NCBI GenBank assembly: GCA_022615275.1
Contig: JAKEHA010000328.1
Coordinates: forward strand, 1 to 32,997
Reading direction: 5' to 3'
Source: Candidatus Latescibacterota bacterium
GTDB taxonomy: Bacteria > Krumholzibacteriota > Krumholzibacteriia > WVZY01 > JAKEHA01
DNA: 32,997 bases
Shown: one piece after another, positions 545-31,091 of the stretch
Numbering within the stretch: position 1 is the first letter of the stretch
Layout of the letters: the number at the start of each line of letters is the position of its first letter
Notes under the pieces: model-generated
What the model saw: the letters and a program-made list of their open reading frames with translations, nothing else
What the model was told of the DNA's origin: nothing
The model's database searches: none
Program-made: the position numbers and the translations under genes

Positions 545-648
545 GGCGGAGTACGTCGAGCGTTCTCCGCTCAGGTCCTCGCGCGAGACACAATATGGTG
601 TCGTATCGCGCTGCGGAAATCGCGTCGAACGTCTCGACGCACTCCGCC
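545..648 (+). repeat. Structured intergenic repeat, copy 1 of 2 (long imperfect hairpin filling the rpsN-rpsH spacer); candidate cis-acting RNA element
   Basis: The 70-nt core 561-630 matches 9235-9304 at 65/70 positions. The outer arms 545-560 and 633-648 are complementary at 15 of 16 positions. The element is transcribed with the operon on the + strand. Confidence 0.85.
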
Positions 649-1075: not shown

Positions 1076-1621
1076 ATGTCGCGAATCGGAAAACAGCCCG
1101 TGAAGATCCCGGCCGGCGTCACGGTCGCCATCGAAAAGACCAAGCTGACGGTGAAGGGTCCCAAGGGTACGCTTTCGCTGCCGGTGCCGGCGGGTTGCTT
1201 GGTGGCGCAAGAGGGCGCCGAAGTGGTCGTCAAGCGCGCGAGCGAAGAGAAGCAGGTGCGCGCGTCGCACGGCTCCACGCGAGCGCACATCGCCAACATG
1301 GTGCGCGGCGTCACCGAGGGTTTCTCGAAGGATCTCGAGATCGTCGGCGTCGGCTACAAGGCCGAGGCGAAGGGGAAGTCGCTGGTGCTGACGATCGGTT
1401 ATTCGCACCTGGTCGACTTCAAGATTCCCGAGGGGATCACCGTCGAGACGCCGGAGCCGACCAAGATCAAGGTGAGCGGCGTCGATCGCCAGCGCGTGGG
1501 CCAGGTCGCGGCCGAGATTCGCGCGGTGCGCGGACCGGAACCCTACAAGGGCAAGGGAATCAAGTACGTCGACGAGCACATCGAGCGCAAGGCCGGCAAG
1601 TCGGCGGCGAGCGGCGGCTAG
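1076..1621 (+). CDS. rplF: 50S ribosomal protein L6
   Basis: The ATG at 1076 (MSRIGKQPVKIPAGV...) is preceded by AAGGAG. The longer track ORF from 1019 overlaps rpsH and is unlikely. PEPYKGKGIKY motif present. Confidence 0.95.
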   Translation: MSRIGKQPVKIPAGVTVAIEKTKLTVKGPKGTLSLPVPAGCLVAQEGAEVVVKRASEEKQVRASHGSTRAHIANMVRGVTEGFSKDLEIVGVGYKAEAKGKSLVLTIGYSHLVDFKIPEGITVETPEPTKIKVSGVDRQRVGQVAAEIRAVRGPEPYKGKGIKYVDEHIERKAGKSAASGG

Positions 1622-1639: not shown

Positions 1640-2122
1640 ATGGAGAAAAAATTCAAGAAGGTCGAAGACTACAAGCGCTGGCGTCGCCACAAGCGCGTGC
1701 GCAACCGCGTCGTGGGCACGCAGGAGCGCCCGCGCGTGTGCGTGTTTCGCAGCAACCAGCACATCTACGCCCAGTTGATCGACGACGAGACCGGTCGCAC
1801 GCTCCTGTCGGTGTCGAGCCTCAAGATGGAGGCGCCGGCGGCGAAGAAAGCGGAGGCCAAGGCCGAGAAGGCGGAAGCCAAGGCCGAAGGGAAGAAGGGC
1901 GGCAAGGCGGCCAAGGCCGACAAACCGGCCAAGGCCGAGAAGGGCGCGGCGTCGGTGGGCGGTAAGAAGACCGCTCTCGCGCGCGAAGTCGGTCGCTTGC
2001 TGGCCGAGGCGGCGCAGGCCAAGGGGTTCAAGAAGGTTGCGTTCGATCGCGGCGGGTACTTGTACCACGGCCGCGTGGCGGCGCTGGCGACATCGGCGCG
2101 CGAGCATGGGCTCGATTTCTAA
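1640..2122 (+). CDS. rplR: 50S ribosomal protein L18 with internal Lys/Ala/Glu-rich insertion
   Basis: [17 protein letters not shown]... and ...[26 protein letters not shown] are conserved L18 blocks. About 45 low-complexity residues lie between them. Confidence 0.95.
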
Positions 2123-3508: not shown

Positions 3509-4822
<1,314 letters not shown>

Positions 4823-5497
4823 ATGAACCTGGTGCTGTTCGGGCCCCCGGGATCCGGGAAGGGCACGCAGGCGGAGCGCCTGCGGAACAAATGGAAGCTC
4901 CGGCACATTTCGACCGGAGACCTCTTGCGCGAAGCCGTCGCCGCGAAGAGCGAACTCGGCCAGAGAGTAGAAAGCGTGCTGGCGTCGGGGCAGTTGGTGT
5001 CGGACGACATCATCTTGGGATTGATGCGCGACGCGATCCTGGCGGTGAAAAAGGACGCGACGCTGTCCGGCTGGTTGCTGGACGGATTCCCGCGCACGGT
5101 CGGGCAGGCGAAGGGGCTGGATGCGCTCCTGGCCGAGACGGGATCGCGCATCGACGCGATCGTCGTCCTGGACGCGACGCGCGACGCGGTGATCGAGAGG
5201 CTCTCGGGTCGGCGGACCTGCACGCAGTGCAAGACCGTCTACCACGTGAAGTACAACCCGACGCGCGTCGACGGAGTGTGCGACAAGTGCGGCGGGAAGG
5301 TGGTCCAGCGCGAAGACGATCGTCCCGAGACGATCGCGAGGCGGCTGGACGTGTACGAAGCGCAGACGCGTCCCATTCTCGCGCACTATGAAGGACGCGT
5401 CGCGACGAACGTGATCGACGGCGATTTGCCGGTCGACGACGTGACGGCGAAGATCGAGCGCGTCTTGCATAGCCCCGGGGGACGGACAGCGGCATGA
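4823..5497 (+). CDS. adk: Adenylate kinase (zinc-lid type)
   Basis: P-loop GPPGSGKGTQ; LID with CTQC...CDKCGG. The start abuts the secY stop. Confidence 0.95.
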   Translation: MNLVLFGPPGSGKGTQAERLRNKWKLRHISTGDLLREAVAAKSELGQRVESVLASGQLVSDDIILGLMRDAILAVKKDATLSGWLLDGFPRTVGQAKGLDALLAETGSRIDAIVVLDATRDAVIERLSGRRTCTQCKTVYHVKYNPTRVDGVCDKCGGKVVQREDDRPETIARRLDVYEAQTRPILAHYEGRVATNVIDGDLPVDDVTAKIERVLHSPGGRTAA

Positions 5498-6237
5498 TCA
5501 TGCTGAAGACGCTCGACGAAATCGACATCATGGAGGCCAACGGCGCCATCGTGGTCGAGTGCTTCGCCCTGGCGCGGGAGTTCATCAAGCCCGGGCGCAC
5601 GCGCAAGGAGTTGGACGCCGCGATCGAGAAGCTGATCGTCGCGCGGGGCGGGAAGCCGGCCTTCAAGGGCTTCCACGGCTACCCCGCGTCGACCTGCATC
5701 TCGGTCAACGACGAGGTCGTGCACGGGATCCCGGACGAGCGCGCGTTCCAGGAAGGCGACTTGGTCGGTCTCGACATCGGCGTCTTCAAGGACGGGTACT
5801 ACGTCGATTCGGCGCGCACGATCCCGGTCGGGCGTGTCAGCAAGGACGCGGAGAAGCTGCTCGAGACGACGTGGGACGCGCTCGAGAAAGGGATCGAGCA
5901 GGCGCGACCGGGCAACCGGCTGACCGACATCTCGCACGCGGTGGAAGTGCGCGCGCGCAAGAGCGGTTTCGCGGTGGTGAGATCGCTGGTGGGTCACGGC
6001 ATCGGCAAGCGCATGCACGAAGACCCGCAGGTGCCCAACTTCGGACCGCCCCACCAGGGGCCCGTGCTGGAGGAAGGCATGGTGCTCGCGATCGAGCCGA
6101 TGGTGAACGTGGGAACCGCCGACGTGTTCACGCTCGAAGACGGCTGGACCATCGTCACGGCGGATCGCAAGTTGTCGGCCCACTTCGAAGACACGGTGGC
6201 CGTGACGAAGGACGGCCCGCGGATCTTGACGCGCTAG
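5494..6237 (+). CDS. map: Type I methionine aminopeptidase
   Basis: ATGA overlap with adk. Metal-ligand blocks DIGV..DGYYVD, VGHGIG and LAIEPM are present. Confidence 0.95.
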   Translation: MIMLKTLDEIDIMEANGAIVVECFALAREFIKPGRTRKELDAAIEKLIVARGGKPAFKGFHGYPASTCISVNDEVVHGIPDERAFQEGDLVGLDIGVFKDGYYVDSARTIPVGRVSKDAEKLLETTWDALEKGIEQARPGNRLTDISHAVEVRARKSGFAVVRSLVGHGIGKRMHEDPQVPNFGPPHQGPVLEEGMVLAIEPMVNVGTADVFTLEDGWTIVTADRKLSAHFEDTVAVTKDGPRILTR

Positions 6238-7046: not shown

Positions 7047-7457
7047 TTGACGACCAACAAACCGGCCACGGGCGGCAAGCGCCCGGCCAGCAAGAAGAAG
7101 CTCCGCAAGGTGGACGCGTACGGTGTCGCGCACATCAAGTCGACCTTCAACAACACCATCGTGACCATCACCGATTCGACGGGGGCCGTGGTGTCGTGGG
7201 CGAGCCCGGGCATGGTGGGTTTCAAGGGATCGCGCAAGAGCACGCCGTTCGCCGCCCAGCTGGCGGCCGAGCGCTGCGCGCGCGAGGCGCTGGAGTTGGG
7301 AATGCGCAAGGTGGAAGCGTGGATCAAGGGACCGGGTGCGGGCCGCGAGGCCGCCATCCGGTCGCTGCGCGCGGCGGGGCTCGAAGTGACCGCGGTCAAG
7401 GACTGCACGCCCCAGCCGCACAACGGATGCCGTCCGAGAAAGAGACGGCGCGTGTAG
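7047..7457 (+). CDS. rpsK: 30S ribosomal protein S11
   Basis: TTG start 7 nt after AAGGAGG. The conserved core is [18 protein letters not shown]...[11 protein letters not shown]. Confidence 0.93.
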
Positions 7458-8162: not shown

Positions 8163-9212
8163 ATGAAATGGCGTAACCTATTGATGCCGAAGGAGATCGT
8201 TCGCGACGACGCGACCGCCACCCCGACCAACGCGCGCTTCATCGTGGAGCCGCTGGAGCGGGGCTTCGGTCTGACCCTCGGCAACGCGCTGCGGCGCACA
8301 CTGCTCTCGTCCATTCAGGGCGCGGCGGTGTCGGCGGTCCGCATCAAGGGTGTCTTGCACGAGCTCTCGAACATCCCCGGTGTCGTCGACGACGTCACCG
8401 ACGTGGTGCTGAACCTGAAGCAGCTCGTGGTCGTGATGCACAACGACGAGCCCAAGTTCCTGAAGCTCAAGGTCAGCAAGCAGGGGCCGATCAAGGCCGG
8501 CGACATCACCGAGGATCCGGATATCGAGATCGTCAACAAGGACCTCGTGCTCTGCACGGCGTCCGAGAACGTCGAAGTCGAGATGGACATCCTGGTCGGT
8601 CACGGGCGCGGGTACGTACCCGGCGAGACCCACGACCTCGGCGACTACGACATCGGCCTGATCCCGCTGGACTCGAATTTTTCGCCCATCCGGAAGGTGG
8701 CGTACACGGTCGAGAACACGCGCGTCGGCCAGCGCACCGACTACGATCGCTTGATCTTCGAGATCACGACCAACGGGAGCGTCACTCCCGAGGACGCGCT
8801 CGGCTACGCGGCCAAGATTCTCAAGGATCACATGGTCCTCTTCATCAAGTTCGACGAAGCGCCCATGGAGGCGCAGGAGCCCGTGGTCGACGAAGAGCGC
8901 GACCGCTTGCGCGAATTGCTCGGCCGGAGCGTGGAAGAGTTGGAACTGTCGGTGCGCTCGGGCAACTGCCTGCGCCGTGCCAACATCAAGACCCTCGGCG
9001 ATCTGGTTCGCCGCAGCGAAGCCGAGATGCTCAAGTACCGCAACTTCGGCAAGCAGAGCCTGAAGGAGATCACCGAGATTCTCTCCGGCATGGGCCTGGG
9101 CCTGGGCATGGACATCGACGCGCTCTTGGGCGGTCGCGCGCCCAGGCCCGCCGTTCCCGCGGCCCCCACTGCGGAAGACGAGTCCGAAGTGGTCATGGAA
9201 GAGAACGGGTAG
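8163..9212 (+). CDS. rpoA: DNA-directed RNA polymerase subunit alpha
   Basis: 349 aa. The N-terminal domain contains FIVEPLERGFG.TLGNALRR. The C-terminal domain contains ELELSVRSGNCLRRANIKTLGDL. Confidence 0.97.
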   Translation: MKWRNLLMPKEIVRDDATATPTNARFIVEPLERGFGLTLGNALRRTLLSSIQGAAVSAVRIKGVLHELSNIPGVVDDVTDVVLNLKQLVVVMHNDEPKFLKLKVSKQGPIKAGDITEDPDIEIVNKDLVLCTASENVEVEMDILVGHGRGYVPGETHDLGDYDIGLIPLDSNFSPIRKVAYTVENTRVGQRTDYDRLIFEITTNGSVTPEDALGYAAKILKDHMVLFIKFDEAPMEAQEPVVDEERDRLRELLGRSVEELELSVRSGNCLRRANIKTLGDLVRRSEAEMLKYRNFGKQSLKEITEILSGMGLGLGMDIDALLGGRAPRPAVPAAPTAEDESEVVMEENG

Positions 9213-9215
9213 GGT

Positions 9216-9326
9216 TAATCGGGGTGTCGTGATCCGTTCTCCGCTCAGGTCCTCGAGCGAGACACAATACTGTGTTGTATCGCTCTGCGGAAATCGCGTC
9301 GAACGAATCACGACACCCCTAGATTA
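9216..9326 (+). repeat. Structured intergenic repeat, copy 2 of 2 (fills the rpoA-rplQ spacer); candidate cis-acting RNA element
   Basis: Core 9235-9304 matches 561-630. The outer arms 9221-9233 and 9307-9319 form a perfect 13-bp stem whose sequence differs from the copy 1 arms. TAATC (9216-9220) and GATTA (9322-9326) extend the stem. Confidence 0.85.
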
Positions 9327-9346
9327 GAAGAAAAAGGTAAACGCAC

Positions 9347-9979
9347 ATGAGACACGGCAAAGATCATCGCAAGCTCGGACGCACCGCGTCGCACCGTTAC
9401 GCCATGATGCGCAGCATGGTGACGTCGCTGTTCGCCGCCGAGCGCATCACCACCACCGCGCCCAAGGCCAAGGAAGCCCGGCGCATGGCGGAGCGGCTCA
9501 TCACGCGCGCCAAGAAGGGCCATCGCGCCCACAAGGAAGGTGCGACGGGCGTGGCCCTCGCGCACTGGCGCGAAGCCGGCCGCGTCGTGCGGAGCCCCGA
9601 GGTGCTGCGCAAGCTGTTCGATCAGCTCGCTCCGCTCTACATGGAGCGCAACGGCGGCTACACGCGCATTATTCGGCTCGATCACACGCGTGTGGGTGAC
9701 AACGCGCGCATGGTGATGCTCGAGCTGGTCGACTCCGAAATCAGCAAGAAGCCGTTGATCCGTGGCGAAGCCACGGAAACCCAAGGTGAAGCCGACGCGA
9801 AGTCCGCCAAGGGCTCCCGCGGCAAGAAGAAGGAAGCCGCCGCCGAGACCAAGCCGAAGAAGGAAAAGAAGGCCAAGCCGCCCAAGGTCGCGAAGGAAGC
9901 CAAGCCCGCGAAGACCAAGGCTGACACCAAGAAGAAAGATTCCGGCGCCAAGCGCTCCGCGCCCAAGAAGTCCGGGTAG
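9347..9979 (+). CDS. rplQ: 50S ribosomal protein L17 with long Lys-rich C-terminal tail
   Basis: MRHGKDHRKLGRTASHR...GGYTRIIRL is the L17 core. It is followed by an ~80-aa K/A/E/P-rich tail. Confidence 0.95.
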   Translation: MRHGKDHRKLGRTASHRYAMMRSMVTSLFAAERITTTAPKAKEARRMAERLITRAKKGHRAHKEGATGVALAHWREAGRVVRSPEVLRKLFDQLAPLYMERNGGYTRIIRLDHTRVGDNARMVMLELVDSEISKKPLIRGEATETQGEADAKSAKGSRGKKKEAAAETKPKKEKKAKPPKVAKEAKPAKTKADTKKKDSGAKRSAPKKSG

Positions 9980-9987
9980 CTTACCGA

Positions 9988-11313
9988 ATGTCGCGCGGAC
10001 GCCGAGCCGCAGCAACCGTTACGGTCCTGATCGTCTCGATCTGGCTGGGCTCCACTGTACGCGCGCCACGGTACGAAGCGCCCCTCCCAATGGGGGGGGC
10101 GCTTTCGTTTGTGCCCGCGCCCGCACGCGCCGACACCGCGCTGTTTCCCTCGCCCTATCTCGCAAGCTTGCAAGAGAGCACTCCCATTCTCCCCGACGAC
10201 GAGATTCGCGCGCTGTGGGTGGTGCGCGACGCGCTCACCACCCCCGAGTCCATCGCGCGCCTGGTCGACTTCGCCGTACTGACGCGCACGCACATGCTCT
10301 TCGTCCAGGTGCGCGGTCGCGCCGATTCGTTCTATCGCTCCGCCGTCGACCCCGCGTCCTCCATCCTGCAAGCACCCGTCGCCGATTTCGACCCGCTCGC
10401 ATACCTCTTGAGCATCGCGCGCCGGCACAGTATCGCCGTGCACGCGTGGATCAACGTGTATCTCGTATGGTCCGACATGTCGAAGTCGCCGCCGTCGGGG
10501 CATCTTGCCGCACGCCATCCCGATTGGTTGTTGACCGACTCCCGGGGCGTGCGCATGGACCGCATGCAATCGTCGCGCTGGAAGCGCACGGGTGCCGAAG
10601 GCTGGTTCGTCTCGCCCGGCAGCCGTGCCATGCGCGAGCACATGGTGCGCGTCGTCCACGAACTCGTCACCGAGTACGAGATCGACGGCATTCATCTCGA
10701 CTACATTCGCTATCCCAACCGCGAGCTATCCTTCGACCCGGCGACGCGCGCGGAGTTCGCCGTCCAGTGGGGTGTGGACCCCGCGGAAGCCGCGCATGGT
10801 GACCGCGGCGCGCTCCAGCGCATGATCGGCGCGGGCGCACTCGCGCTCGTCGACAGTCTCTACAACGAGTCGCGCGTGGCCCAAGTCGACAGCATGGTGA
10901 TCGCGATTCGCGCCGCGTGCCGCCACAAGGCGCTCTCGGCCGCGGTAGTCGCGGATCCCTTCACCGCCCGCCACGACAAGGGACAGGACTGGGCACGCTG
11001 GGTCAACAATCGCTGGATGGACTTCGTCGTCCCGATGGGCTACAACTTCCCGCCGCTGGAGCTCGAGCACCGCGCGACCATCTACAATCGCATGGTGGGG
11101 AAGGAACGGTGGCTCATGGGCCTGGGCGTTTTCGACGGCCGCGACGAGTATCTCGCCGAGTCGGTGCAACTCCTGCGCGAAGTGGGTGTCATGGGCTTCT
11201 CGATCTTCTCGTACAACGTGCTTGAGGAGGAAGGCTTCGGCGCGGCGCTGATCGAGGAGGCAGTGCTGCCGCCGGATACGAGCTGGGTGGATGAGGAGTA
11301 CGAGGACGAATAA
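9988..11313 (+). CDS. Glycoside-hydrolase-like family 10 (GHL10/DUF187, YngK-like) secreted protein
   Basis: N-terminal signal-like segment. Blocks RALWVVRDAL, LFVQVRGRADSFYRS, DPLAYLL...HAWINVY and GIHLDYIRYP match my recollection of the GHL10 family. Confidence 0.75.
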   Translation: MSRGRRAAATVTVLIVSIWLGSTVRAPRYEAPLPMGGALSFVPAPARADTALFPSPYLASLQESTPILPDDEIRALWVVRDALTTPESIARLVDFAVLTRTHMLFVQVRGRADSFYRSAVDPASSILQAPVADFDPLAYLLSIARRHSIAVHAWINVYLVWSDMSKSPPSGHLAARHPDWLLTDSRGVRMDRMQSSRWKRTGAEGWFVSPGSRAMREHMVRVVHELVTEYEIDGIHLDYIRYPNRELSFDPATRAEFAVQWGVDPAEAAHGDRGALQRMIGAGALALVDSLYNESRVAQVDSMVIAIRAACRHKALSAAVVADPFTARHDKGQDWARWVNNRWMDFVVPMGYNFPPLELEHRATIYNRMVGKERWLMGLGVFDGRDEYLAESVQLLREVGVMGFSIFSYNVLEEEGFGAALIEEAVLPPDTSWVDEEYEDE

Positions 11314-11481
11314 GCCGACGAAATGTCATAGTACGGCGCCCCGGGACACGATGGACTAGATCGACCCTGGGAGTACTTCCCGGGCGCCGCGTCCACCTCG
11401 GGTCGGCAGACGCTACCGGAGCAAGCAGGTGCACGTGCTACCAGGATGCCGAACGGGCACCACACCCCACGGGATACAATG

Positions 11482-11978
11482 CTAATTCTGGCTCCGGTAA
11501 TGCGACGCTACAAACTCGAGCGGGGGAACATTCGCGATTGGCTCGAGGAGCCGCCGGTTGTTGATCCAATCGATCCACTCCAACGTCCGGAAACTCCGCC
11601 GCGCCAAACTGACGCAAGGGACTCGGCGTTCAATCAGATCGGTCTTGTAGAGCCCAATCACCGTCTCGGCGAGCGTCGTCTCATACGAGTCGCCCATACT
11701 TCCCGCCGAGGGCTCGATGCCGGCTTCCGCGATGCGTTCGGTGTAATGGATCGAAAATACTGCCACCCCTCGATCGCTGTGGTGAATCAACCCCGACATG
11801 TCGCCGCGCGCATGGATCCCTTGCTCCAGTGCATCGAGCGTGAGGTCGGTTTGTAGAGAGCGCGATGCTCGCCAGCCCACAATCGTGGGCGCAACACGTC
11901 GATCACAAACGCCATGTAGACGAAGCCATACCAGTTAGATTGCTCGTCTCGGTGGGCGGCGATGAAGGCCACCATCAC
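11482..11978 (-). pseudogene. IS3-family transposase (OrfB, rve/DDE integrase core) remnant: N-terminally truncated or internally deleted, and frameshifted
   Basis: ORF 11482-11880 reads GWRASRSLQTDLTLDALEQ...HHSDRG...EAGIEPSAGSMGDSYETTLAETVIGLYK...LEWIDWINNRRLLEPI. The upstream piece in another frame (11787-11978) reads FIAAHRDE..WYGFVYMAFVIDV. No OrfA is present. Confidence 0.8.
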
Positions 11979-13309
11979 CTCGGTTTAAGTCGTTCAACCG
12001 GCTGCCGAAAAGCGGCGCCGAACGCGCCGCAATCCCCTGCGATGCCCATGGGGCCGCATGCGCTAACAGGTGGCAAGCATGGCGAGTTCGACTGTAGATA
12101 GAAGTCGTCACTTGCAGCATTACAGAATAGCGGGTCAAGTGATAGGTTGCCCATCGTTCCAGACTGACTGGCGATGCATCCCGTCCAGTCTCCTATTTCA
12201 TTCCCGTAAACGTCAGAACACACGATGGTCACCGCTGGAGGGCCGAGAATCGAGTCACAGTAAACTGGCATGCTGCCCAGGTTAGAGGCCATGATCGTTC
12301 TCTCAAAACTAGTTGACGAGGAAGCTCCGCAGTTGATGGAGCTTCCCTTGCTCGCGCTGTTCCCGTAGAATACACTGGAGCTAATAGTCCCGACCGATGC
12401 CGCATACGCCCAAATCGCGCCGCCATTTTGTCCGCACGCGTTTCGCGCGAACGTGCAACTCTCCAATGAAAACTCACTATTCACGACATCAATGGCACCA
12501 CCATGACTTCCCGCAACGTTGTCGAGGAATACACACCCCATTGCTGCGAGCCGAGCGGGCTCGGCCACAAGGGAGGTCGAGTAGATAGCGCCTCCGCTAA
12601 AGGAGGCCCCGTTCCTTATGAATCGGCAATCCGTCATGGTCACACGTGAGGATAGATTCACGATCGCGGCACCGCTTGCGCTGCTATAGTTGTCCACGAA
12701 CGTGCAAGAACCTAGAACTGGTGATGCTTGCTGGCTGGCACGAATCGCGCCACCTACGTTTAACGCGAAAGTACATGCATTGAACGACGGTGAAGAGGAT
12801 TTGCAATCCACCGCTACATTGCCATGGAGACGAAACACCACGGATCGAAAGGCGGGCGAGCTTCCCTTCTCGCAAGTGATTGCACCACCGCCGCCGACAC
12901 CGTATCCATTTTCGACCGTTACCCCCTCGATTCTTGTTTGGTTAGTCTCTCCACTAGAGAAAAGAAAACCGCGGTGGGGCTCCACGTCATTTCCGACGCA
13001 ATCTATGATGCACAGACTTGGGTCACCGCTCTCAGAGCGAACAAGGATCCGTCGTCCCTTGAGATCCAAGTCGCGGTTGCCACCTCCCACAAACCTGCCG
13101 TTTGCAAGCGAAACAGTATCTCCATTAATCGACGCGTTGATTGCTGCTTGGATTGTCGGATAGTCACCCGTTCCGTCATACACGACTCGAATGTTGCGCG
13201 GATCGCGCAGTACTGGGGGCTTGGTCGGTGGGTCGTCATCGCAACCGATGGCCAAGGCTAGAACGCCGCCCAAGAGCAGGTGGGTATTAAAACGCAACAT
13301 CAAATTCAT
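11975..13309 (-). CDS. Lipoprotein with right-handed parallel beta-helix (PbH1) repeats
   Basis: Signal plus lipobox: MNLMLRFNTHLLLGGVLALAIGC. Repeated C.F..N...GGAI units occur, e.g. CTFVDNYSSASGAAI, CRFIRNGASFSGGAIY, CVFLDNVAGSHGGAI, CTFARNACGQNGGAIW. Confidence 0.75.
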   Translation of the reverse strand: MNLMLRFNTHLLLGGVLALAIGCDDDPPTKPPVLRDPRNIRVVYDGTGDYPTIQAAINASINGDTVSLANGRFVGGGNRDLDLKGRRILVRSESGDPSLCIIDCVGNDVEPHRGFLFSSGETNQTRIEGVTVENGYGVGGGGAITCEKGSSPAFRSVVFRLHGNVAVDCKSSSPSFNACTFALNVGGAIRASQQASPVLGSCTFVDNYSSASGAAIVNLSSRVTMTDCRFIRNGASFSGGAIYSTSLVAEPARLAAMGCVFLDNVAGSHGGAIDVVNSEFSLESCTFARNACGQNGGAIWAYAASVGTISSSVFYGNSASKGSSINCGASSSTSFERTIMASNLGSMPVYCDSILGPPAVTIVCSDVYGNEIGDWTGCIASQSGTMGNLSLDPLFCNAASDDFYLQSNSPCLPPVSACGPMGIAGDCGAFGAAFRQPVERLKPR

Positions 13310-13459
13310 TGAGCTGCCTCCATGGTCTATCTACATGACAGTATAACAGATAGGGCGTGGCCGACTAGCGGAGTCTTAACTTGACGATCCATCTGAATCG
13401 TGGGAAGCTGGTAAGCGTTGTAACGGAAACTTGTTGCTTCCTTTCGCTTCGTCGCACGA

Positions 13460-13858
13460 ATGCAACAAACCACGTCGTTATCGAGTCCGTGCCTCCGGTT
13501 TCTGTGCGTATTGCTTGCGCTTTGCGTGCCGGCATGTGCCAAGTACGTGCGCGTCACACCGTCCCAGCTCACACCGACTACGTCACGTGACACCTATCGG
13601 ATTACGATGGCTAGCGGGCATGTCTACGTCGCCAATCGATTGTCGTTGGAAGATAGCGTCCTAACGATTGGTGGAATAGAATTGAGTCCGGCGAATTCGA
13701 TCAAGGAAGAGTCAATCCTCACTGTTCCTCTTGTTGAAGTGCGAGCGATCGAGCGAGTTGACACTCATCCTCGTCGCACGATGTTCGTGATGGTCGGAGT
13801 GTTTGTCACGATTGCAGCTGCAATTACCGCGTTTTCGACGTTCGGTTCGTTCTCGTAG
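13460..13858 (+). CDS. Small hypothetical lipoprotein with C-terminal TM helix
   Basis: LLALCVPAC lipobox. C-terminal hydrophobic segment MFVMVGVFVTIAAAITAF. Ends 10 nt upstream of the giant ORF. No family recognised. Confidence 0.5.
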   Translation: MQQTTSLSSPCLRFLCVLLALCVPACAKYVRVTPSQLTPTTSRDTYRITMASGHVYVANRLSLEDSVLTIGGIELSPANSIKEESILTVPLVEVRAIERVDTHPRRTMFVMVGVFVTIAAAITAFSTFGSFS

Positions 13859-13867
13859 TGGCATGTC

Positions 13868-16800
13868 GTGCCGGAAGGGTATGAAGAAATGAGTTCGATT
13901 TCCACTCGTGTTGCGAAGCTCTGGATTGTCCTCCCTATGTTAATTGTGCCCGCAAGTGTCGTTGCGGAGGACTTGGACCTGAATGGTTTTCCCGATGCTA
14001 ATGAACAAGCGCTGGTTGATAGGTTTTGCCCTTCTCTCGTACTCAACTCCCTCGATAGGCAAGAGTCACCGGTGTGCCCGGAGCCCGTCGAAATAATCAC
14101 TGGGAAGATTTGGAATTCGTGGCGCGATTTGACCGCGCAGTCGTACCGGGGAGTCACGTTCCGGTTGAACACGACAGATGTCAATTACTCGCTATTGACG
14201 AACAGCGTACCGGAGCAAGGCTATCCGCCGCAGACTACGTATGATGGTTGCTTCCAAAACAGCCCTCCGTTGTCGGAAAAGCAGAAGCACTATGACTACG
14301 GTGACCCCGGCGAGGAGTGCGAGTGGCAGAGTTCGCATTGGAAGGACCAGCCCACGAACCCGGAAGGTGGTTGGTACACGATCTACGATCAGGGCGTTGG
14401 CGGTGCTTTTAGGGGAGCTGATTATCCGCATACGGTTTACGCGCATCCATTCTCTTTTGTTGAGGACAATGAAACGCAACTCGTGATACAGTACTGGTTC
14501 TTCTATCCATTCAACGATTGGGTCAACAATCATGAGGGCGACTGGGAACATATCAACGTGTTCATTACGTCAGATGATCCCAACTCTTCACAGATAGATA
14601 GAGTGGTCTACTATTTTCACGAAAGATACACGATTGCGGCTGACACGCAAATTGAGTATCCCAACGGTCCGTTTGATTGTTACGTCGTGGACGGCACTCA
14701 TCCGGTTGTTTTTGTTGGAGGATCGGCGAACGAGACTGACTGCGAGTTTGGAGTATGTGATAACGGCGCAGGGAACGGATCTCATGGATCTTACACCATG
14801 CCGGGTGTTTGGAACAACGTAAACGAGCGGGGATACGAGGACGAGCCCGACGGAGTCGGTCTCTGGATCCCGTGGTCGCAGATTGTTGACAACGATGACA
14901 GCGATTTGGATGGCGTTGTCCTGTTGAAGGAGAGAAACGCGTACAACTATGCCGCAAAGCCGTGGATGAGTTGGCACAATGCCAATATCTCATGGGGTCA
15001 TCCGAACGTGTGGTCGATGGGAAGCAATCACACGGAATTGATAGGGCTGTTTGGGGGCACGTCCATAGGTAGCGAATCGCCAAATGGCCCAGCATATCAG
15101 GATACTTGGAACGCTCCGTACGGAACAGAGAGGTTTCTCCAGTACATTTTCGTCGCACCGCATCCAAATGCAAGCGATGCGAATTGGTCGCCCCCACCGA
15201 GGATGGTCTTGACGTTCCCCGGTCAGAATGCGGAAGTATTCGGAGAGTTGGTTATTCAAGGCACCATTCACTATGCTGATGAGGTGACCCTGGACTGGGG
15301 TGTGGGAGCAGACCCAACCGAGTGGAGTGAGCTTGGGACTAGCGTTGAAGAAACCCCGGTTGTAGATTCAGCGATTGGTCGGTGGAATACCGGTTATGTG
15401 CCGGGCGGGACATACACCATACGCATTCGCTCTACGTATGGAGGCCAAATTTCGGAGGCCGTGCGAACCGTATCCGTATTGCACCGTACCGTATCGGTCG
15501 CGCAGGTAGGCGGCGACTTCGCGACCATACAGGAGGGCATTGACTATGCCGCAACGGGCGATACTGTTCGTGTCGCGATGGGAGGAGCAGCCTACCCTCC
15601 AACGAGCTTAACGATGAAGGCCGGTGTTCACCTTGTGGCCACGGGCGGGCCGGTGCGGGACGTCTTTGGTCTGGAAGACACACCTACAATCAGGATAGAG
15701 GATCACGACCAACCCGGAGGAGGCTCCGACGGTCCGCCAAGCACCATCGACGGTTTTACGTTCCGGCACAATCACGCGTTCCCGAGTGCGCCAGGTAGTT
15801 CGAGCGAGCACGGCGCCATAATCGATGGGTCCAGCCCAGCGTTCCGGAATTGCACGTTCAAGTACAACGTGGCAGATCGGGGGGGCGGCGTTCTTGTAAT
15901 TGCTTCACCAGGAAGGGTGACGCGGCCGATCTTCGAGAATTGCAAGTTCATCGGGAACCGAGGCAACAACGATGCAGGAGCGATCGCCATTGAGGATGTC
16001 GGGACGCCCCCAAAGACAGGCCAAGTAGGTTTCGAATGCTATGACTGCGAGTTTGCGGGTAACTTCGCGGGACAGGCTAGTGGCGGCACTGCGGTTAGTG
16101 CGGCTTACATTGACGCGCAAGGCGAACCGCTTGTATTGGCAGACTGCTCATTCAGCGAGCATGAGCAGGCTAGCACTGTGATTCTTCTGGCTGGCGTGAC
16201 AGACGCGAATTTCACGAACTGCGTGTTTTTTGATAACAGTACGATCGACCTAGTGCACATGGATCATCACTCCCGCCCGACGTTTGATCGTTGTACCTTC
16301 GCTAAGAACTATGGGGTCGATGGCGTTTTTGGCTGGAGCGAGCCCAACAACGGTTTCCCCGATATAAGCCGTTCGATTATCGCCTTCAATAATGGCCCTG
16401 TTTCAATTGGTAGCTCCGGGCTGACGACATCCATCGAGCTGGTGAACACAATAGTGTTCGCCAACCTCGATCAAGGGCGTGGCCCTTCGGACGCGGCGTG
16501 GGATGCGGCGTGGCTTTCAGCCATCCGTATTGATCCAGCGTTCTGTTCCACGGCCGGCTTTGATTTCCGGCTGTTTGCGTATTCACCAGCTTCCGCACCG
16601 ACCCTGCCAAACCTCGGCTATTTTGGTGAGCGAGTTGGGGCGTTCGACGTGGGGTGCGTACCGTCGGCCGATGTGACCGCTTCGTCGAGCGGGCAGATCA
16701 TCCCGGAGAAGCCATGGATCGTTGTCGCGTGCCCACAGGGGGATCAGTGCCCCAATGCCGCTAAGGATCTTGTCGTTACCGTCGACCTCGACGGTTCGAT

Positions 16801-17974
16801 CACTCGCGACATCGATTGGCGAGAGGTTGTACTCGATGCGGCGGACTGTGTATCGACTACTCGGGTGTTTGATCAGAGCGGGTTTGTAGAGGCCGGAGCG
16901 GAAGCCGTGGGTCCCGATTACGTCGCCACGATCACGCACAGCTATTGGGGCGGATATGGGGTGAACGACGTCGATGTTCTCTTGAATGGCCATCCCCTGG
17001 GGCCAGTAGCACACTTCGATCTTCGGACTTCTGATATCATGCCAGACGGCCAGATAGATCTGGGTGACTTCGCGATCTTCGGAAACTACTATCCACCGGG
17101 CGATCCCCCGAAGCCGTACAGCAGCCACGTTGACTACGACGACGACGGAACTGTGGAACTGGACGACTTCGCGACATTCGCCAGTCACTACAACCACGCG
17201 GCACCGGAGGGATATTTGCAGCTCAACCCGTCGAGTCAACCGGTGGAATCAGACGCGGGCATATCGCTTCAGTTTAGCGAGGAGTTTCCGACTGCCAACA
17301 GTCACCGACTATATGTCGACGTGACAGTGGAGAACTTTGCCGACGTAACGACATCGGTCTTCTCCATGCGAACCGGGAGCGATCGACTGACGTTCGTGGA
17401 GTGGCTGCCGGAAGGTAACGCCGTGGGCGAGGTTCTGTTTACCCCTGTCGTTCGAGACGGTGCGCAGGAACTCTTCTACGGCCTGTTCGTGTCGGAGTCG
17501 TACTCGGCGGTCAGTGGTGAACTCGGCCGGCTGGTGTTCGACGTCACCGGGACGGATCCGATTGAGATCTCTGACGACAACTTCGTGCTGATGGTCGGCG
17601 ACGTGCTTTTGGAGAGTGCTGGATCGGGCCAGGCCGTCGCCGCTCAAATGCGGGGAGTATTCGATCGGACTTTCGACCCGGCGGTCGCTCGGATCTATCA
17701 CAACCGGCTCGAGCAGAACTTCCCGAACCCGTTCAACCCAACGACGACCCTTTCGTTCTCGATCAAGGACGCTGGGAGCGTCAATCTCACGATCTATGAC
17801 GTCGCGGGGCGGCGGATTCGGGAACTCGTGAACGAGCGACGCGAGCGCGGGGCTTACAAGGTCGTGTGGGATGGGCAGAACGACGCAGGTCAAACGGTGG
17901 CGAGCGGCGTTTACTTCTACAAGCTGGTTGCGGCTTCGTTTACGGACACGAAGAAGATGACGATACTGAAGTAA
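13868..17974 (+). CDS. Giant secreted multidomain protein: Vps62/DUF946-like domain, beta-helix (PbH1) region, dockerin-like repeats, cohesin-like module, FlgD-Ig/T9SS-like C-terminal domain
   Basis: Single 1368-codon ORF. A likelier start is the ATG at 13889 (MSSISTRVAKLWIVLPMLIVPASVVA signal) after GGAAGGG. Motifs: QYWFFYPFNDWVNNHEGDWEHINVF; NCTF/NCKF/DCEF/NCVF/RCTF repeats; DGQIDLGDFAIF and DDDGTVELDDFATF; C-terminal NFPNPFNPTTTLSF...SGVYFYKL. Confidence 0.85.
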   Translation: MPEGYEEMSSISTRVAKLWIVLPMLIVPASVVAEDLDLNGFPDANEQALVDRFCPSLVLNSLDRQESPVCPEPVEIITGKIWNSWRDLTAQSYRGVTFRLNTTDVNYSLLTNSVPEQGYPPQTTYDGCFQNSPPLSEKQKHYDYGDPGEECEWQSSHWKDQPTNPEGGWYTIYDQGVGGAFRGADYPHTVYAHPFSFVEDNETQLVIQYWFFYPFNDWVNNHEGDWEHINVFITSDDPNSSQIDRVVYYFHERYTIAADTQIEYPNGPFDCYVVDGTHPVVFVGGSANETDCEFGVCDNGAGNGSHGSYTMPGVWNNVNERGYEDEPDGVGLWIPWSQIVDNDDSDLDGVVLLKERNAYNYAAKPWMSWHNANISWGHPNVWSMGSNHTELIGLFGGTSIGSESPNGPAYQDTWNAPYGTERFLQYIFVAPHPNASDANWSPPPRMVLTFPGQNAEVFGELVIQGTIHYADEVTLDWGVGADPTEWSELGTSVEETPVVDSAIGRWNTGYVPGGTYTIRIRSTYGGQISEAVRTVSVLHRTVSVAQVGGDFATIQEGIDYAATGDTVRVAMGGAAYPPTSLTMKAGVHLVATGGPVRDVFGLEDTPTIRIEDHDQPGGGSDGPPSTIDGFTFRHNHAFPSAPGSSSEHGAIIDGSSPAFRNCTFKYNVADRGGGVLVIASPGRVTRPIFENCKFIGNRGNNDAGAIAIEDVGTPPKTGQVGFECYDCEFAGNFAGQASGGTAVSAAYIDAQGEPLVLADCSFSEHEQASTVILLAGVTDANFTNCVFFDNSTIDLVHMDHHSRPTFDRCTFAKNYGVDGVFGWSEPNNGFPDISRSIIAFNNGPVSIGSSGLTTSIELVNTIVFANLDQGRGPSDAAWDAAWLSAIRIDPAFCSTAGFDFRLFAYSPASAPTLPNLGYFGERVGAFDVGCVPSADVTASSSGQIIPEKPWIVVACPQGDQCPNAAKDLVVTVDLDGSITRDIDWREVVLDAADCVSTTRVFDQSGFVEAGAEAVGPDYVATITHSYWGGYGVNDVDVLLNGHPLGPVAHFDLRTSDIMPDGQIDLGDFAIFGNYYPPGDPPKPYSSHVDYDDDGTVELDDFATFASHYNHAAPEGYLQLNPSSQPVESDAGISLQFSEEFPTANSHRLYVDVTVENFADVTTSVFSMRTGSDRLTFVEWLPEGNAVGEVLFTPVVRDGAQELFYGLFVSESYSAVSGELGRLVFDVTGTDPIEISDDNFVLMVGDVLLESAGSGQAVAAQMRGVFDRTFDPAVARIYHNRLEQNFPNPFNPTTTLSFSIKDAGSVNLTIYDVAGRRIRELVNERRERGAYKVVWDGQNDAGQTVASGVYFYKLVAASFTDTKKMTILK

Positions 17975-27789: not shown

Positions 27790-28419
27790 ATGAGACCGAG
27801 ATCGGCTCTATTGATGATCGGCGTGGTCGCGATGGTTTCGCTCGCGTGCGCGAAGCGCACCATCGTCGAAGTCCCGCCCCGCATGGATCTCTATTCGTAC
27901 AACTTGATCGGTGTCGTCCAGTTCAGCACCGAGAGCAAGGGCTCGCTGGCGCAGTTCGCGACCCAGCGTTTCGTCGAAGCCTTGCAGGAGTCGCAGCCCG
28001 GCGTGCGCGTGCTGGAACTCGGCAAGGCGGAAGACATCAAGCGTGAAGTCAAGCGCGACAACATGAGCTTCGAAACCATGCGCGTGATCGGCGAGCACTA
28101 CGGCGTGGGCGCCGTAATCGTGGGTACGCTGGACGTCGAGGACGTCAAGCCGCGCGTCGATCTCCAGTCGATGATCGTGAGCGGGAGTGTGAGCGCGGAC
28201 GTGAAGGCGTCCCTCACGACCAAGATCATGGAGACCTCGAGCGGTGCCACCGCGTGGACGCGCTCCGCGCGCACCTCGTGCACCGTCGCGCAAGTCGGCA
28301 TGAGCGGCGGCTCGGTTCGCTTCGACGCCAAGGACCCCGAGCGCGCCTACGGCAACATGGTCGACGCACTCATCATGGACCTCACGCGCGACTTCCGCGT
28401 CTCCTACGTGAGTCAGTAG
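27790..28419 (+). CDS. Hypothetical lipoprotein (209 aa)
   Basis: The ATG at 27790 after GGAGG gives MRPRSALLMIGVVAMVSLAC, a signal peptide with lipobox. No family recognised. Confidence 0.6.
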   Translation: MRPRSALLMIGVVAMVSLACAKRTIVEVPPRMDLYSYNLIGVVQFSTESKGSLAQFATQRFVEALQESQPGVRVLELGKAEDIKREVKRDNMSFETMRVIGEHYGVGAVIVGTLDVEDVKPRVDLQSMIVSGSVSADVKASLTTKIMETSSGATAWTRSARTSCTVAQVGMSGGSVRFDAKDPERAYGNMVDALIMDLTRDFRVSYVSQ

Positions 28420-28452
28420 CCTGGAAGCGTCACGCGGTGCCGAGGCCCCAGT

Positions 28453-28501
28453 AGAAACCGGACATTTCTATCGGGCGGAAGACCGGACATTTCTAATGGG
28501 C
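28453..28501 (+). repeat. Tandem direct repeat, 2 units of 24-25 nt, upstream of the tRNA promoter
   Basis: GAAACCGGACATTTCTATCGGGCG is followed directly by GAAGACCGGACATTTCTAATGGGCG. The 14-nt core ACCGGACATTTCTA is identical in both units. Confidence 0.85.
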
Positions 28502-28524
28502 GTTTACACGGCCGAACGGGGCCA

Positions 28525-28553
28525 TTGACAAGTGGTTAGCAAGATTGTAGTCT
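28525..28553 (+). promoter_or_regulatory. Candidate sigma70-type promoter for tRNA-Asn
   Basis: Perfect -35 TTGACA (28525-28530), 17-nt spacer, weak -10 TAGTCT (28548-28553). It lies about 11 nt before the mature tRNA 5' end. Confidence 0.35.
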
Positions 28554-28564
28554 CTCCGCCTGGT

Positions 28565-28881
28565 TCCTCGGTAGCTCAATGGTAGAGCATGCGGCTGTGT
28601 CCACGACGCAGCGCCGACGGGAGACCGTCGGTGAAAAATCGGGTGAATTCAGGGAAGCCCTTCCAGGGTAATCCTGAGCGAAGCCCGCCGAATGAGAGAC
28701 CAAGTAGGCGGGAACGTGCAGAGACTAGGGGATGAGGACTCTCAACCGATACGCCCCACTAGCGCCCGACACCCTCGCTCGTGTTCAACGAGACGGGTGA
28801 TGAGATAGTCCGAGCCCTTTGGCAACAAAGGGAACCCTCGTAACCGCAGGGTTGTAGGTTCGAGTCCTACCCGGGGAGCCA
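28565..28881 (+). tRNA. tRNA-Asn (anticodon GUU), split gene: exon 1 28565-28598, exon 2 28841-28881 (CCA encoded)
   Basis: Joined exons give UCCUCGG-UA-GCUC-AAUGGUA-GAGC-A-UGCGG-CUGUUAA-CCGCA-GGGUU-GUAGG-UUCGAGU-CCUAC-CCGGGGA-G-CCA, a full cloverleaf. The acceptor has 7 bp including one G-U, the discriminator is G73, and the 5' UCCUC and 3' GGAGCCA ends resemble E. coli tRNA-Asn. Confidence 0.88.
28599..28840 (+). ncRNA. Group I intron (242 nt, no ORF) inserted between anticodon positions 35 and 36
   Basis: The 5' exon ends in U and the intron ends in G. P1 pairs exon GCUGU with intron GCAGC (28608-28612) and has a U-G pair at the splice site. P2 is CCGACGG-GAGA-CCGUCGG. R-like GUGCAGAGACUA and S-like GAGAUAGUCC give P7 GACUA/UAGUC. 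P9 is CCCUUUG-GCAA-CAAAGGG. Confidence 0.82.
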
Positions 28882-29315
28882 TTCTTTTTCTATCGCTTCC
28901 TTCGACGCTCCGACCGTTTTCATTTCCGCTTCTTTGGCGACTCCATCCGCAAGGGTTGCAAAGACTTGTTTCAACTCGACGTGTACCACGAGGGACACGG
29001 CCGACCGAACTTCCCGCCCACCACAACCCCACACGCCCAAAGCCCCCAAACCCCGGACGCAACCAAACCTCGCCAGTTGTCCAACTGGTGAACGTCGGTT
29101 ACGTCGCCACATCACCTGCGCCAGAAACAGTTCGGCGTCCTCCGAATCCCACTTTCCCAGTGTTTCGAAGAACGCCGCCAATTCAATCCCCGCTGTCTTC
29201 ACATCGCATCCTCCCATCCGAACCCTACCAACTAACTAACGTCCAATATCACCTCCTGCTTCATACTCTTGCGTTTCGCCACCGTCAAGGTCGCTGCGTT
29301 CGAAACATCACGTTT

Positions 29316-29337
29316 CCTGACGTCCACCACTCTGGGG
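29316..29337 (+). repeat. Short dispersed repeat copy A (CCTGACGTCCACCACTCTGGGG)
   Basis: Matches 31070-31091 at 20/22 positions. Its last 15 nt are identical to 31155-31169. Confidence 0.8.
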
Positions 29338-29383
29338 TATCCCAGATGCAGGTGGTTCTAACGTCGTCCACTCTACCGCTGCC

Positions 29384-30055
29384 CTACAAGAGTCCGTTCT
29401 CAGCCAGCTCTGCTCGGTATCGTCCAATCAAGTCCTTGCGCCAGTTCTCCAATAGCTCGCCAAGAATCGCTAAATCGTCACCTAGCTTGAGCGCTTGAGC
29501 ACCAATCCGCATGTTGTCATTCGGCCCCTCGACTGCCCCGACGCTCTTGATGATGCATGCCGTCCGACGCTGATGATCCCCCAGTTCGGACCATGACGAC
29601 GGCCATTCGTCTCGATGCTTGAAGTAGTTGGCGAAAGCGTCGACAACTTGAATCTGCGAGTAGCCGCTATCTTGCTTCGACCAGACGGCCGGTGCACTTC
29701 CCACCGTCATGATCGCGGCCTTTGACTTATTGGTCGTCTTGAGATCGACGTGCCGGTTCGTCGCAAGATTGTGCAGCATGACTATTTCCGAGATAACCCA
29801 AGAGATGTAGACTTGTGCCACCACGAATGAAGCGCCGAGCAATGCCTCTTCAACCCTTGATTCGTGCTCAATATATGTCTCCGCGTGCTCCTTTTCGTAT
29901 TCCGTCTTGGCTTTCGCAATTGACACACGTACTTCCTGCCGCAGCTGATCAAATTTCGCGAAGACATCGCTAAATTGTTGCTGCTCTATGTCCACCGTTG
30001 TGAGGAGGTTCGAAAAGATGTTGGCTTTGAAGCCGGGGCCTATGTGACTGGTCAT
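29384..30055 (-). CDS. Hypothetical protein (223 aa from MTSHIG; 233 aa if started at 30085)
   Basis: Clean ORF in the lower-GC segment. AAGGAAG precedes the internal ATG at 30055. Predicted mostly helical. Motif FANYFKHRDEW. No confident family. Confidence 0.6.
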   Translation of the reverse strand: MTSHIGPGFKANIFSNLLTTVDIEQQQFSDVFAKFDQLRQEVRVSIAKAKTEYEKEHAETYIEHESRVEEALLGASFVVAQVYISWVISEIVMLHNLATNRHVDLKTTNKSKAAIMTVGSAPAVWSKQDSGYSQIQVVDAFANYFKHRDEWPSSWSELGDHQRRTACIIKSVGAVEGPNDNMRIGAQALKLGDDLAILGELLENWRKDLIGRYRAELAENGLL

Positions 30056-31028: not shown

Positions 31029-31069
31029 GCCCGTGTGTTCGCCCCGCAGGCCGTGGACAAATTTGACGC

Positions 31070-31091
31070 CTGACTTCCACCACTCTGTGGG
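31070..31091 (+). repeat. Short dispersed repeat copy B (CCTGACTTCCACCACTCTGTGG)
   Basis: Matches copy A at 20/22 positions. Confidence 0.8.

Follow-up and report, generated by a model that had tools for sequence, protein, structure and literature searches.

A dispersed intergenic hairpin repeat occupies two spacers of the ribosomal-protein cluster in a Candidatus Latescibacterota bacterium

Two long spacers in the ribosomal-protein cluster of a Candidatus Latescibacterota bacterium probably (we put the probability at about 0.68) hold members of a dispersed, non-coding family of palindromic repeats, of the REP, ERIC and MITE kind, in uncultured Latescibacteria and Krumholzibacteria. The repeat is a multi-copy, non-coding, intergenic hairpin that favours the 3' ends of genes and is not tied to ribosomal genes. 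What is new is the family itself, whose phylum has neither cultured representatives nor any repeats on record; the general REP/ERIC/MITE-like kind is known. Throughout, the window is the whole stretch of DNA analysed, the complete contig JAKEHA010000328.1 of 32,997 nt, and positions are counted from its first nucleotide.

Results

The same hairpin in two spacers of the ribosomal-protein cluster

The spacer between rpsN and rpsH measures 132 nt (rpsN stop at 536, rpsH start at 669) and that between rpoA and rplQ 134 nt (rpoA stop at 9212, rplQ start at 9347), compared with 2-50 nt for most of the remaining spacers of the cluster. A sequence-only reading of this DNA had drawn both spacers correctly, at 537-668 and 9213-9346, and its claim on the 70-nt core holds exactly: the sequence of 561-630 appears again at 9235-9304, changed at five positions. 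Each spacer folds into a single long imperfect hairpin (-63.8 kcal/mol, z = -5.3, for rpsN-rpsH; -58.8 kcal/mol, z = -6.5, for rpoA-rplQ), which nearly fills it and leaves the RBS free. That reading was thus right that a repeated hairpin element is present in both spacers, but the unit it described was too small: the repeat is the entire hairpin of ~105 nt (544-649 and 9221-9319), larger than the 70-nt core. The outer ~15 nt on each side are unlike each other in copies 1 and 2, yet self-complementary within each (GGGCGGAGTACGTCGAG/CTCGACGCACTCCGCC in one copy vs GGGGTGTCGTGAT/ATCACGACACCCC in the other), and in the apical stem two of the five core differences compensate each other, copy 1 having C582/G610 where copy 2 has A9256/T9284. 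The two copies and their neighbours are laid out as follows; all features lie on the forward strand.

351 to 536, forward: rpsN (S14, 61 aa, short form), 5' neighbour of copy 1; orthologues at L041 and L044 are annotated as S14 by Pfam.
544 to 649, forward: copy 1, whole hairpin in the rpsN-rpsH spacer; from the fold and a match to covariance model R1 (described below) at 544-648, 86.8 bits.
544 to 565, forward: copy 1, 5' arm of the outer stem, GGGCGGAGTACGTCGAGCGTTC; pairs with 627-649, with a sequence that drifts and a pairing that is kept.
565 to 587, forward: copy 1, 5' half of the conserved core, CTCCGCTCAGGTCCTCGCGCGAG; invariant columns, orthologues in clades A and C 95% identical.
588 to 605, forward: copy 1, apical stem-loop, which varies between copies and here has the long form (GACAC-loop-GTGTC with a GTA bulge); from comparison of copies.
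606 to 627, forward: copy 1, 3' half of the conserved core, TCGCGCTGCGGAAATCGCGTCG; orthologues 97-100% identical.
627 to 649, forward: copy 1, 3' arm of the outer stem; from the fold and arm pairing.
669 to 1067, forward: rpsH (S8), 3' neighbour of copy 1; PF00410.
8163 to 9212, forward: rpoA, 5' neighbour of copy 2; Pfam in orthologues.
9221 to 9319, forward: copy 2, whole hairpin in the rpoA-rplQ spacer; from the fold and a covariance model match at 9218-9321, 83.4 bits; weaker pairing possibly extends it to 9215-9327.
9239 to 9261, forward: copy 2, 5' half of the conserved core; from the core alignment and its conserved columns.
9280 to 9301, forward: copy 2, 3' half of the conserved core; from the core alignment and its conserved columns.
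9347 to 9979, forward: rplQ (L17), 3' neighbour of copy 2; PF01196.

We give next to no credence to the idea that this repeat reflects chance or faulty assembly. A 35-nt stretch of the core occurs at only two sites in the window, copies 1 and 2, with none expected and no match in 100 shuffles; copy 1 is identical in the independently assembled sister MAG (locus L037); and dozens of copies are found in independent MAGs and metagenomes from different projects. In favour of an artefact, contigs of the sister MAG break near copy 2, so this region is hard to assemble. A single assembly stands behind the copy-2 allele of the window only, and for the element itself an artefact is refuted.

A conserved asymmetric core between drifting, paired arms

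Every copy adopts the same fold, an imperfect hairpin of ~100-110 nt. The outer stem has 14-26 bp (~20 bp) and is usually broken once, by a bulge or mismatch that lies 5-7 bp short of its inner end, and inside it lies a UC/UC internal loop (sometimes UC/UUC), followed by a core in which CGC/GCG and UCC/GGA pairs flank an asymmetric UCAGG/AAAU loop. This asymmetric core comprises ~45 conserved nucleotides, 5'-CTCCGCTCAGGTCCTCGCGCG ... CGCGCTGCGGAAATCGCGTCG-3'. Above it stands a stem of the GCGCGA/UCGCGC type, which shows occasional compensatory changes, and a variable apex that is either long (GACAC-loop-GUGUC with a GUA bulge) or short (GAGACAUUUGGUAUC); in many copies the short apex GAGACATTTGGTATC stands in for the long one.

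The outer stems of all copies together hold 489 Watson-Crick pairs, 23 G-U pairs and ~16 single mismatches, and the median identity of 5' arms between copies is 39%. In the alignment, which was fitted to the model, 96.3% of cells are paired, compared with 78% in shuffles and 30-51% when the partners are slid. All 10 of the 10 modelled outer-stem pairs have changed on both sides. Core pairs never vary, and they therefore carry no information either way on the exact fold of the core.

In one subfamily of ~10 dispersed copies with arms GGCCGACRCGATCGTYCYYC..., homology ends exactly at the arm tips, where no flanking direct repeat is visible by eye in these copies or in those of the window. A scheme in which the arms are copied from flanking target DNA was rejected, the arms being unlike their local flanks. 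Because homology reaches the arm tips and the arms do not resemble the flanks, the unit that has dispersed is the whole hairpin, arms included.

These observations make it very unlikely that the mobile part is a core of only ~60 nt that enters the loops of hairpins already in place, be they terminators or members of another repeat family, with the arms being target DNA. Such a scheme would suit an invariant core set between arms that are near-random from copy to copy, the occurrence of the same short or long apex with several arm types, and positions after stop codons and at convergent junctions, which is where terminator hairpins sit. It is contradicted by the ~10 dispersed copies whose homologous arms lose similarity at their tips, by arms unrelated to local flanks, and by the empty sites among the clusters surveyed below, at which no arm-like hairpin is present (rpoA-rplQ in L001 and L038; rpsN-rpsH in L041, where 3 nt separate the genes, and in L043). 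Terminators, moreover, are not expected in the spacers of a ribosomal operon, and the 120 metagenome matches contain no element reduced to a half or split in two.

Copies beside unrelated genes in related genomes

The genome scan covered one genome per species with an exact pattern, consisting of the two invariant internal-loop segments and a variable gap between them. This gapped scan returned 35 loci, 22 of which are true copies, with full core and hairpin, in five related MAGs: at least 13-14 in CAZLLI01 (on 13 contigs), five in CAVTNQ01 (Latescibacteria), two in CAYXEN01, one in CAZCQM01 and one in a MAG of the Krumholzibacteriia. The remaining 13 loci are chance matches, easily told apart by their unrelated interiors. 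Copy numbers per genome are lower bounds because the pattern is exact. Covariance model R1, built from 24 copies (these 22 and the window pair), recovers all 24 at 80-103 bits and adds diverged or variant copies that the exact pattern overlooked.

For the metagenome scan the query was the 17-nt 5' core half alone, so as to catch split or autonomous architectures. It gave 120 rows, including 110 chance matches in GC-rich coding DNA and nine true members, all of them ordinary; the 120 matches include no half-element and no split architecture. Copies in ribosomal clusters are strongly over-represented, making up 5/22 genome matches and 8/9 true metagenome matches, and ascertainment by exact pattern, which favours well-conserved copies, may explain part of this excess.

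The third role offered by the sequence-only reading, a REP/MITE-like insertion, is the one that these data favour. The copy count in related genomes, which that reading had itself named as the test between its proposed roles, gives 22 further copies in five MAGs and places the element in unrelated contexts, in many intergenic regions and in both orientations relative to transcription; further backing comes from its presence and absence at 99.93% identity and its flips of orientation within one spacer, both of which emerge from the survey that follows.

Gain, loss and inversion in ribosomal clusters

Since the exact pattern needs an intact core, ribosomal clusters were also sampled blind to the element to avoid that bias: clusters around S8 homologues of 91-75% identity, selected on the length of their contigs and nothing else, were fetched first and scanned afterwards. 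The state of each of the three spacers concerned is given below.

rpsN-rpsH: sense in the window, L037, L029, L034, L039, L044 and L024; antisense in L038 and L040; empty or unrelated in L041 (3 nt), L043, L042 and L045.
rpoA-rplQ: sense in the window and L039; antisense in L040 (the same site as L028); empty or unrelated in L001, L038, L041, L042, L043 and L044.
rpsJ-rplC: sense in L038 and L039; antisense in L009; empty or unrelated in L042, L043, L044 and L045.

The rpsJ-rplC spacer is thus a third one colonised in relatives, and it lies outside the window. An assignment of L009 as an rpoA-rplQ spacer with a flipped core was rejected, as BLASTP against L17 was negative and the flanks read S10 and L3, which is rpsJ-rplC. 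Copy 1 has orthologues in L029, L034, L039, L052, L024, L059, L044, L083 and L110 and inverted counterparts in L038 and L040, the one in L038 being the reverse complement of window copy 1, arms included. Partial remnants of arm or core lie beside the full copy in L039 and L040, and at rpoA-rplQ the arms are homologous in 3/3 occupied lineages.

Comparison with the sister MAG separates the two copies of the window. Copy 1 is unchanged there (L037) and is, by sequence comparison, old and fixed. Copy 2 is absent from locus L001 of the sister MAG, which is 99.93% identical to the window over 10.6 kb 3' of the spacer; its absence from so similar a locus is strain-level polymorphism. Over the last 212 nt of rpoA the two are only 96.2% identical, with the differences clustered in the last ~60 nt, and the residual rpoA-rplQ spacer of L001 differs from that of the window; sister-MAG contigs appear to break here. 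This local burst of divergence beside copy 2 suggests that homologous recombination, and not a clean excision, may account for the difference in alleles. The loci compared show a repeat that, over short time-scales, is gained or lost between near-identical strains and that can be inverted whole and in place; none of them forms a clean pair of empty and filled sites showing exact insertion boundaries or a target-site duplication.

Junctions, neighbours and strand

Genes around the copies were called with a codon-usage model trained on the ribosomal genes of the window. By junction, the 24 copies divide into 11 convergent, 13 co-directional (10 sense, 3 antisense) and none divergent, the last figure (0/24) not being significant alone. 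Convergent junctions are enriched 16-fold, with 11/24 copies against 7/143 element-free junctions in the same loci (Fisher p = 9e-7); convergent copies typically span stop codon to stop codon, and copies in general mostly sit just 3' of stop codons. The neighbours are unrelated housekeeping genes, encoding M20, M28 and M48 peptidases, an amidohydrolase, PCMT, glutamate dehydrogenase (gdh) and Obg, as well as PhoU, a Nuo/Mrp subunit, ThiE, rhomboid, OmpA and DinB. Among 20 flanking proteins tested there is no transposase, and no cognate IS with the same ends was seen in ~1 Mb of fetched loci.

The complement of the strand that we call sense folds ~4-7 kcal/mol better, a difference that tracks the core and not the direction of transcription. 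It follows that, where the direction of transcription is known, 15 of 20 copies have the less stable strand in mRNA. Counts of G-U vs A-C show no clear bias and no signal tied to the mRNA strand, and nothing points to selection specifically on that strand.

It is in this distribution that a cis-regulatory RNA specific to the ribosomal operon, be it a leader to which a protein binds in autoregulation or a site dedicated to processing, becomes hardly credible. In the window the element would look the part, lying on the transcribed strand, nearly filling two spacers with the RBS free and forming a stable, covarying hairpin that is conserved at rpsN-rpsH in many relatives. Yet most copies flank unrelated genes, and those downstream in the ribosomal clusters differ (S8, L17, L3), so no single ribosomal protein could be the ligand; the element is antisense in L009, L038 and L040/L028, is missing from both close and more distant relatives, and matches no Rfam ribosomal leader. 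The distribution largely refutes the idea. The autoregulatory ribosomal-protein site or dedicated processing signal proposed from the sequence alone accordingly finds no support, and operon-specific readings fail because the element sits beside genes for a peptidase, obg, phoU, gdh and thiE, is dispensable at rpoA-rplQ and also occurs antisense. By analogy with other repeats, a 45-bp hairpin may nonetheless influence the decay or processing of mRNA in a generic way.

Age of the rpsN-rpsH copy and constancy of the core

A neighbour-joining tree of ~650 aa of S8, L6, L18 and S5, drawn without support values, places the rpsN-rpsH copy in all of clade A (7/7) and clade C (5/5) and in none of clade B (0/3), the sister of A; the outgroup is without it, and clade B is without all three ribosomal copies. 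Clades A and C have a downstream junction in common (CCGCCTACGGTAGGAGA vs CCGCTAGCGGCAGGAGA), which makes a single old insertion with loss in B at least as likely as two gains.

Between clades A and C, the arms of the rpsN-rpsH copy are 37-42% identical and the four-fold degenerate sites of S8 52%; for the two core halves (45 nt) the figure is 95-97%, two inverted copies included. The arms thus fall below four-fold sites and the core far above them, which means that the arms change at the neutral rate or faster though they stay paired, and that the core is either constrained or continually homogenised. At this orthologous locus the hairpin has been kept by compensatory change. In the element-blind set the core is not perfectly invariant, with UCAGG changed to UCAUG and GCGGAAA to GUGGAAA or GCGAAAA. 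Within the clades compared, the data show a core kept near-constant across divergences that saturate neutral sites.

Known RNA families and other sequence collections

Neither spacer has a match in Rfam 15 at the gathering threshold; at E<=10 there is only noise, the best sub-threshold E-values (0.3-2) belonging to generic long-hairpin families far under their thresholds. This agrees with the statement in the sequence-only reading that no ribosomal-protein leader or ribozyme family fits. Integron attC sites, retron ncRNA, known self-cleaving ribozymes and IS200/IS605 ends were set aside by inspection and Rfam, because their conserved and variable parts are misplaced, the family is single-copy or no model matches. 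No terminator-like site was called at window copies 1 and 2, whose tails, TACGGTAGG and TAGATTAGA, have no U-tract features. The hairpin repeat has no blastn match in plasmids or phages, nor, at word size 11, in 5,426 E. coli genomes (20,395 records), and its two matches in viral contigs are both due to chance, with no true member among them. The literature found on Latescibacteria and Krumholzibacteria concerns ecology and metabolism only, with nothing on repeats.

Discussion

In behaviour, the closest known element is ERIC, or IRU, an imperfect palindrome of ~127 bp. The two are similar in size, each forms one long imperfect hairpin, and both are non-coding and intergenic, lying within transcription units or at the 3' ends of genes in either orientation. 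Both are also patchy between relatives and vary widely in copy number by genome, and neither has a known mobilising enzyme. According to Wilson and Sharp 2006, the ERIC sequence is reportedly conserved across genera beyond neutral expectation. The present repeat differs in belonging to another phylum and in having no sequence similarity to ERIC (blastn against the 5,426 E. coli genomes). ERIC has reported effects on mRNA decay, and ERIC-type elements have conserved TIRs, target duplications and a flanking TA (PMC3184786). Their ends are conserved; those of the present repeat vary more than any other part of it, and no duplication is seen by eye.

REP and REPIN elements offer a second comparison. 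As described (PMC3116915), they are short extragenic palindromic repeats that form a ~100-nt hairpin in ssDNA or mRNA, are repetitive, keep the hairpin by compensatory changes, show no evident target-site duplication, and combine excision or absence of the whole unit with long vertical persistence. Our repeat is alike in these respects, a duplication having been looked for by eye. A REPIN has two highly conserved ends, the inverted REP units, and a less conserved, compensating spacer between them (PMC3116915). That layout is reversed here, the centre being conserved and asymmetric and the compensating ends varying freely, and copies number in the tens rather than the hundreds. REPIN systems also include a single-copy RAYT gene, encoding a Y1 HUH transposase, with the repeats on either side of it; the 20 flanking proteins tested here include no transposase.

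Correia/NEMIS elements of Neisseria and the MITEs RUP, Nezha and Chunjie likewise are non-coding, hairpin-forming sequences of 100-160 bp that are often co-transcribed at the 3' ends of genes. MITEs are defined by terminal inverted repeats common to the copies, together with target-site duplications and a cognate IS, and differences in their location between close strains are taken as evidence of mobility (PMC3184786). The present repeat is small (<~400 bp), multi-copy and free of a transposase ORF and forms a long hairpin, all as in MITEs; shared terminal repeats are what it lacks, since its arms have a median identity of 39% and its conserved part is internal. With ribosomal-protein leaders and other cis-regulatory RNAs of Rfam it has in common a ribosomal operon, the transcribed strand and a covarying stem with conserved internal loops, and it differs from them in having no Rfam match, many copies beside unrelated genes, a variable orientation and dispensability. 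Judged on sequence and layout, the hairpin repeat is a member of neither ERIC nor the REPINs and stands apart from MITEs for want of shared terminal repeats.

If the repeat is a mobile palindromic family of this general kind, its core would be the site at which a trans-acting protein recognises the element so as to copy or maintain it. Conservation of the core independent of orientation favours recognition at the level of DNA over that of mRNA, and the putative protein probably acts on a folded single strand or a cruciform. Selection for the hairpin, template-switch correction of quasi-palindromes, or the two together may keep the arms complementary. Such correction is a known mutational process, and because it may operate here, the covariation of the arms is weaker evidence of function than it would be in an ordinary RNA. 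Within the ribosomal operon it is probably no more than a passenger that the host tolerates, although a hairpin of ~45 bp in a polycistronic mRNA may, by analogy, incidentally slow 3'-to-5' decay or attract a double-strand RNase such as RNase III. Effects on mRNA decay or processing have been reported for REP, ERIC and Correia elements (PMC3184786).

One feature sits less easily with this interpretation. The near-perfect core at a vertically inherited site is not expected of a purely selfish, decaying insertion: either other copies must continue to homogenise it or the host must benefit. Pure selfishness leaves unexplained both the persistence of the rpsN-rpsH copy with an intact core and the excess in ribosomal clusters, and for this reason we continue to give some weight to host benefit, improbable as we consider it. 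The element would then be a structure selected by the host, in either orientation, at the 3' ends of genes and within its most strongly expressed operon, whether as a barrier to mRNA decay, an RNase III site, a bidirectional transcription stop, or a cruciform or protein site that manages supercoiling where genes converge and where transcription is heavy, and its dispersal would be secondary. Several observations would fit: the strong preference for convergent junctions and for positions directly behind stop codons, the ribosomal-cluster excess with an rpsN-rpsH copy at the same junction throughout clades A and C, a core 95-97% conserved where neutral sites stand at 52%, and the compensatory change that preserves the hairpin at the orthologous locus. 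REP/BIME elements of E. coli stabilise upstream mRNA and bind gyrase or IHF. They provide an analogy that may extend to the present repeat, as do ERIC and Correia elements, which affect mRNA stability (PMC3184786).

Against selection by the host, the element is dispensable, copy 2 being missing at 99.93% identity and clade B lacking all three ribosomal copies. A function of the hairpin as such would leave its 45-nt frozen, asymmetric core unexplained, and a sequence-specific function of the RNA is countered by inverted copies that keep the core. The window copies have no U-tract terminator features, and most copies place the less stable strand in mRNA.

To a further, still more speculative proposal we assign a low probability. 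The core could be the binding or cleavage site of a dedicated protein, host-encoded or domesticated, so that element and protein would form a new, vertically maintained system, similar to REPIN-RAYT pairs but with inverted architecture and probably a different enzyme. The substrates of that system would be extruded DNA hairpins. The host would keep it at convergent junctions and in its most transcribed operon because it is useful there, for relief of topological stress, for marking transcript ends, or for both.

Our preferred reading, a dispersed palindromic repeat, has consequences for how these genomes are annotated and assembled. The hairpin repeat explains two odd spacers in an essential operon and the breaks in the assemblies of these MAGs at this point, and it serves as a warning that a covarying hairpin in a ribosomal operon may be a repeat and not a regulator. 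The covariance model can be used for a census of the family in complete genomes. With a conserved asymmetric centre and paired arms that drift freely, the layout is the reverse of that of REPINs and lies outside the definition of MITEs. Since the core is constant at an orthologous site and in both orientations, the family offers a clean case in which to ask whether an enzyme, gene conversion or benefit to the host maintains such an element.

Possible rearrangement around element copies

In the rpsN-rpsH spacers of two relatives, partial remnants of the element directly adjoin the full copy (at 7112-7173 in ribosomal-protein cluster L039 and at about 620-683 in L040), one being an isolated 5' arm that retains the initial bases of the core and the other an antisense end of the core with an arm. 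The presence of such remnants beside full copies suggests that this spacer has undergone repeated rearrangement or re-insertion.

The second site of the window, the rpoA-rplQ spacer, is occupied by a copy that is polymorphic. When the 3' end of rpoA (window 9145-9212) is compared with positions 1-212 of L001, the sister-MAG locus that lacks this copy, eight differences, including a 3-nt indel, are clustered in the last ~60 nt of the gene; outside this cluster the sister MAG is 99.93% identical to the window. The contigs of the sister MAG appear to break and overlap around window positions ~9004-9144. This pattern looks like a recombination tract or a strain bubble with the polymorphic copy at its centre.

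In L006, a locus of MAG CAYXEN01, matches to the covariance model form a mutually inverted pair 56 nt apart, of which one copy is well conserved (92 bits) and the other diverged (38.7 bits):

1509-1610, plus strand, element copy
1667-1763, minus strand, element copy

In L014, from a Latescibacteria MAG, a called ORF (4206-5846) runs through the element at 5709-5815; this could be an artefact of the gene caller, or the coding sequence may overlap this copy at its 3' end. The very G+C-rich rpsJ-rplC spacer of L041, a clade B ribosomal-protein cluster (3610-3728; 119 nt), holds a palindromic sequence unlike the element, with only a weak partial match to the model, in the apical region (18.8 bits); this palindrome may be related to the element and have decayed, or may be a hairpin of separate origin.

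Other features of the window

Further downstream, a tRNA gene is split in its anticodon loop by a group I intron:

28554-28915, group I intron in tRNA gene (Rfam RF00028, 94.9 bits, E = 1.8e-23); intron about 28599-28840

ARAGORN found no tRNA in the unspliced window, and splicing in silico by group I rules yields a normal 75-nt tRNA-Asn(GUU). We infer that the 5' exon ends at U28598 and the intron at G28840; alternative splice choices would give different anticodons.

A codon-usage model trained on the window's ribosomal genes missed the long ORFs at 11300-17000 and 28400-32700, among them a minus-strand ORF for a 444-aa beta-helix protein and the greater part of that for a 1345-1368-aa FlgD_ig protein. 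Codon usage in these regions thus seems unlike that of the ribosomal cluster.

One gene directly follows rplQ:

9988-11313, GHL10-family (glycoside-hydrolase-like) gene

Its counterpart lies immediately 3' of rplQ in all eight fetched clusters of relatives (L038-L045). This gene order is conserved synteny, and such a gene is unusual as a neighbour where the alpha operon ends.
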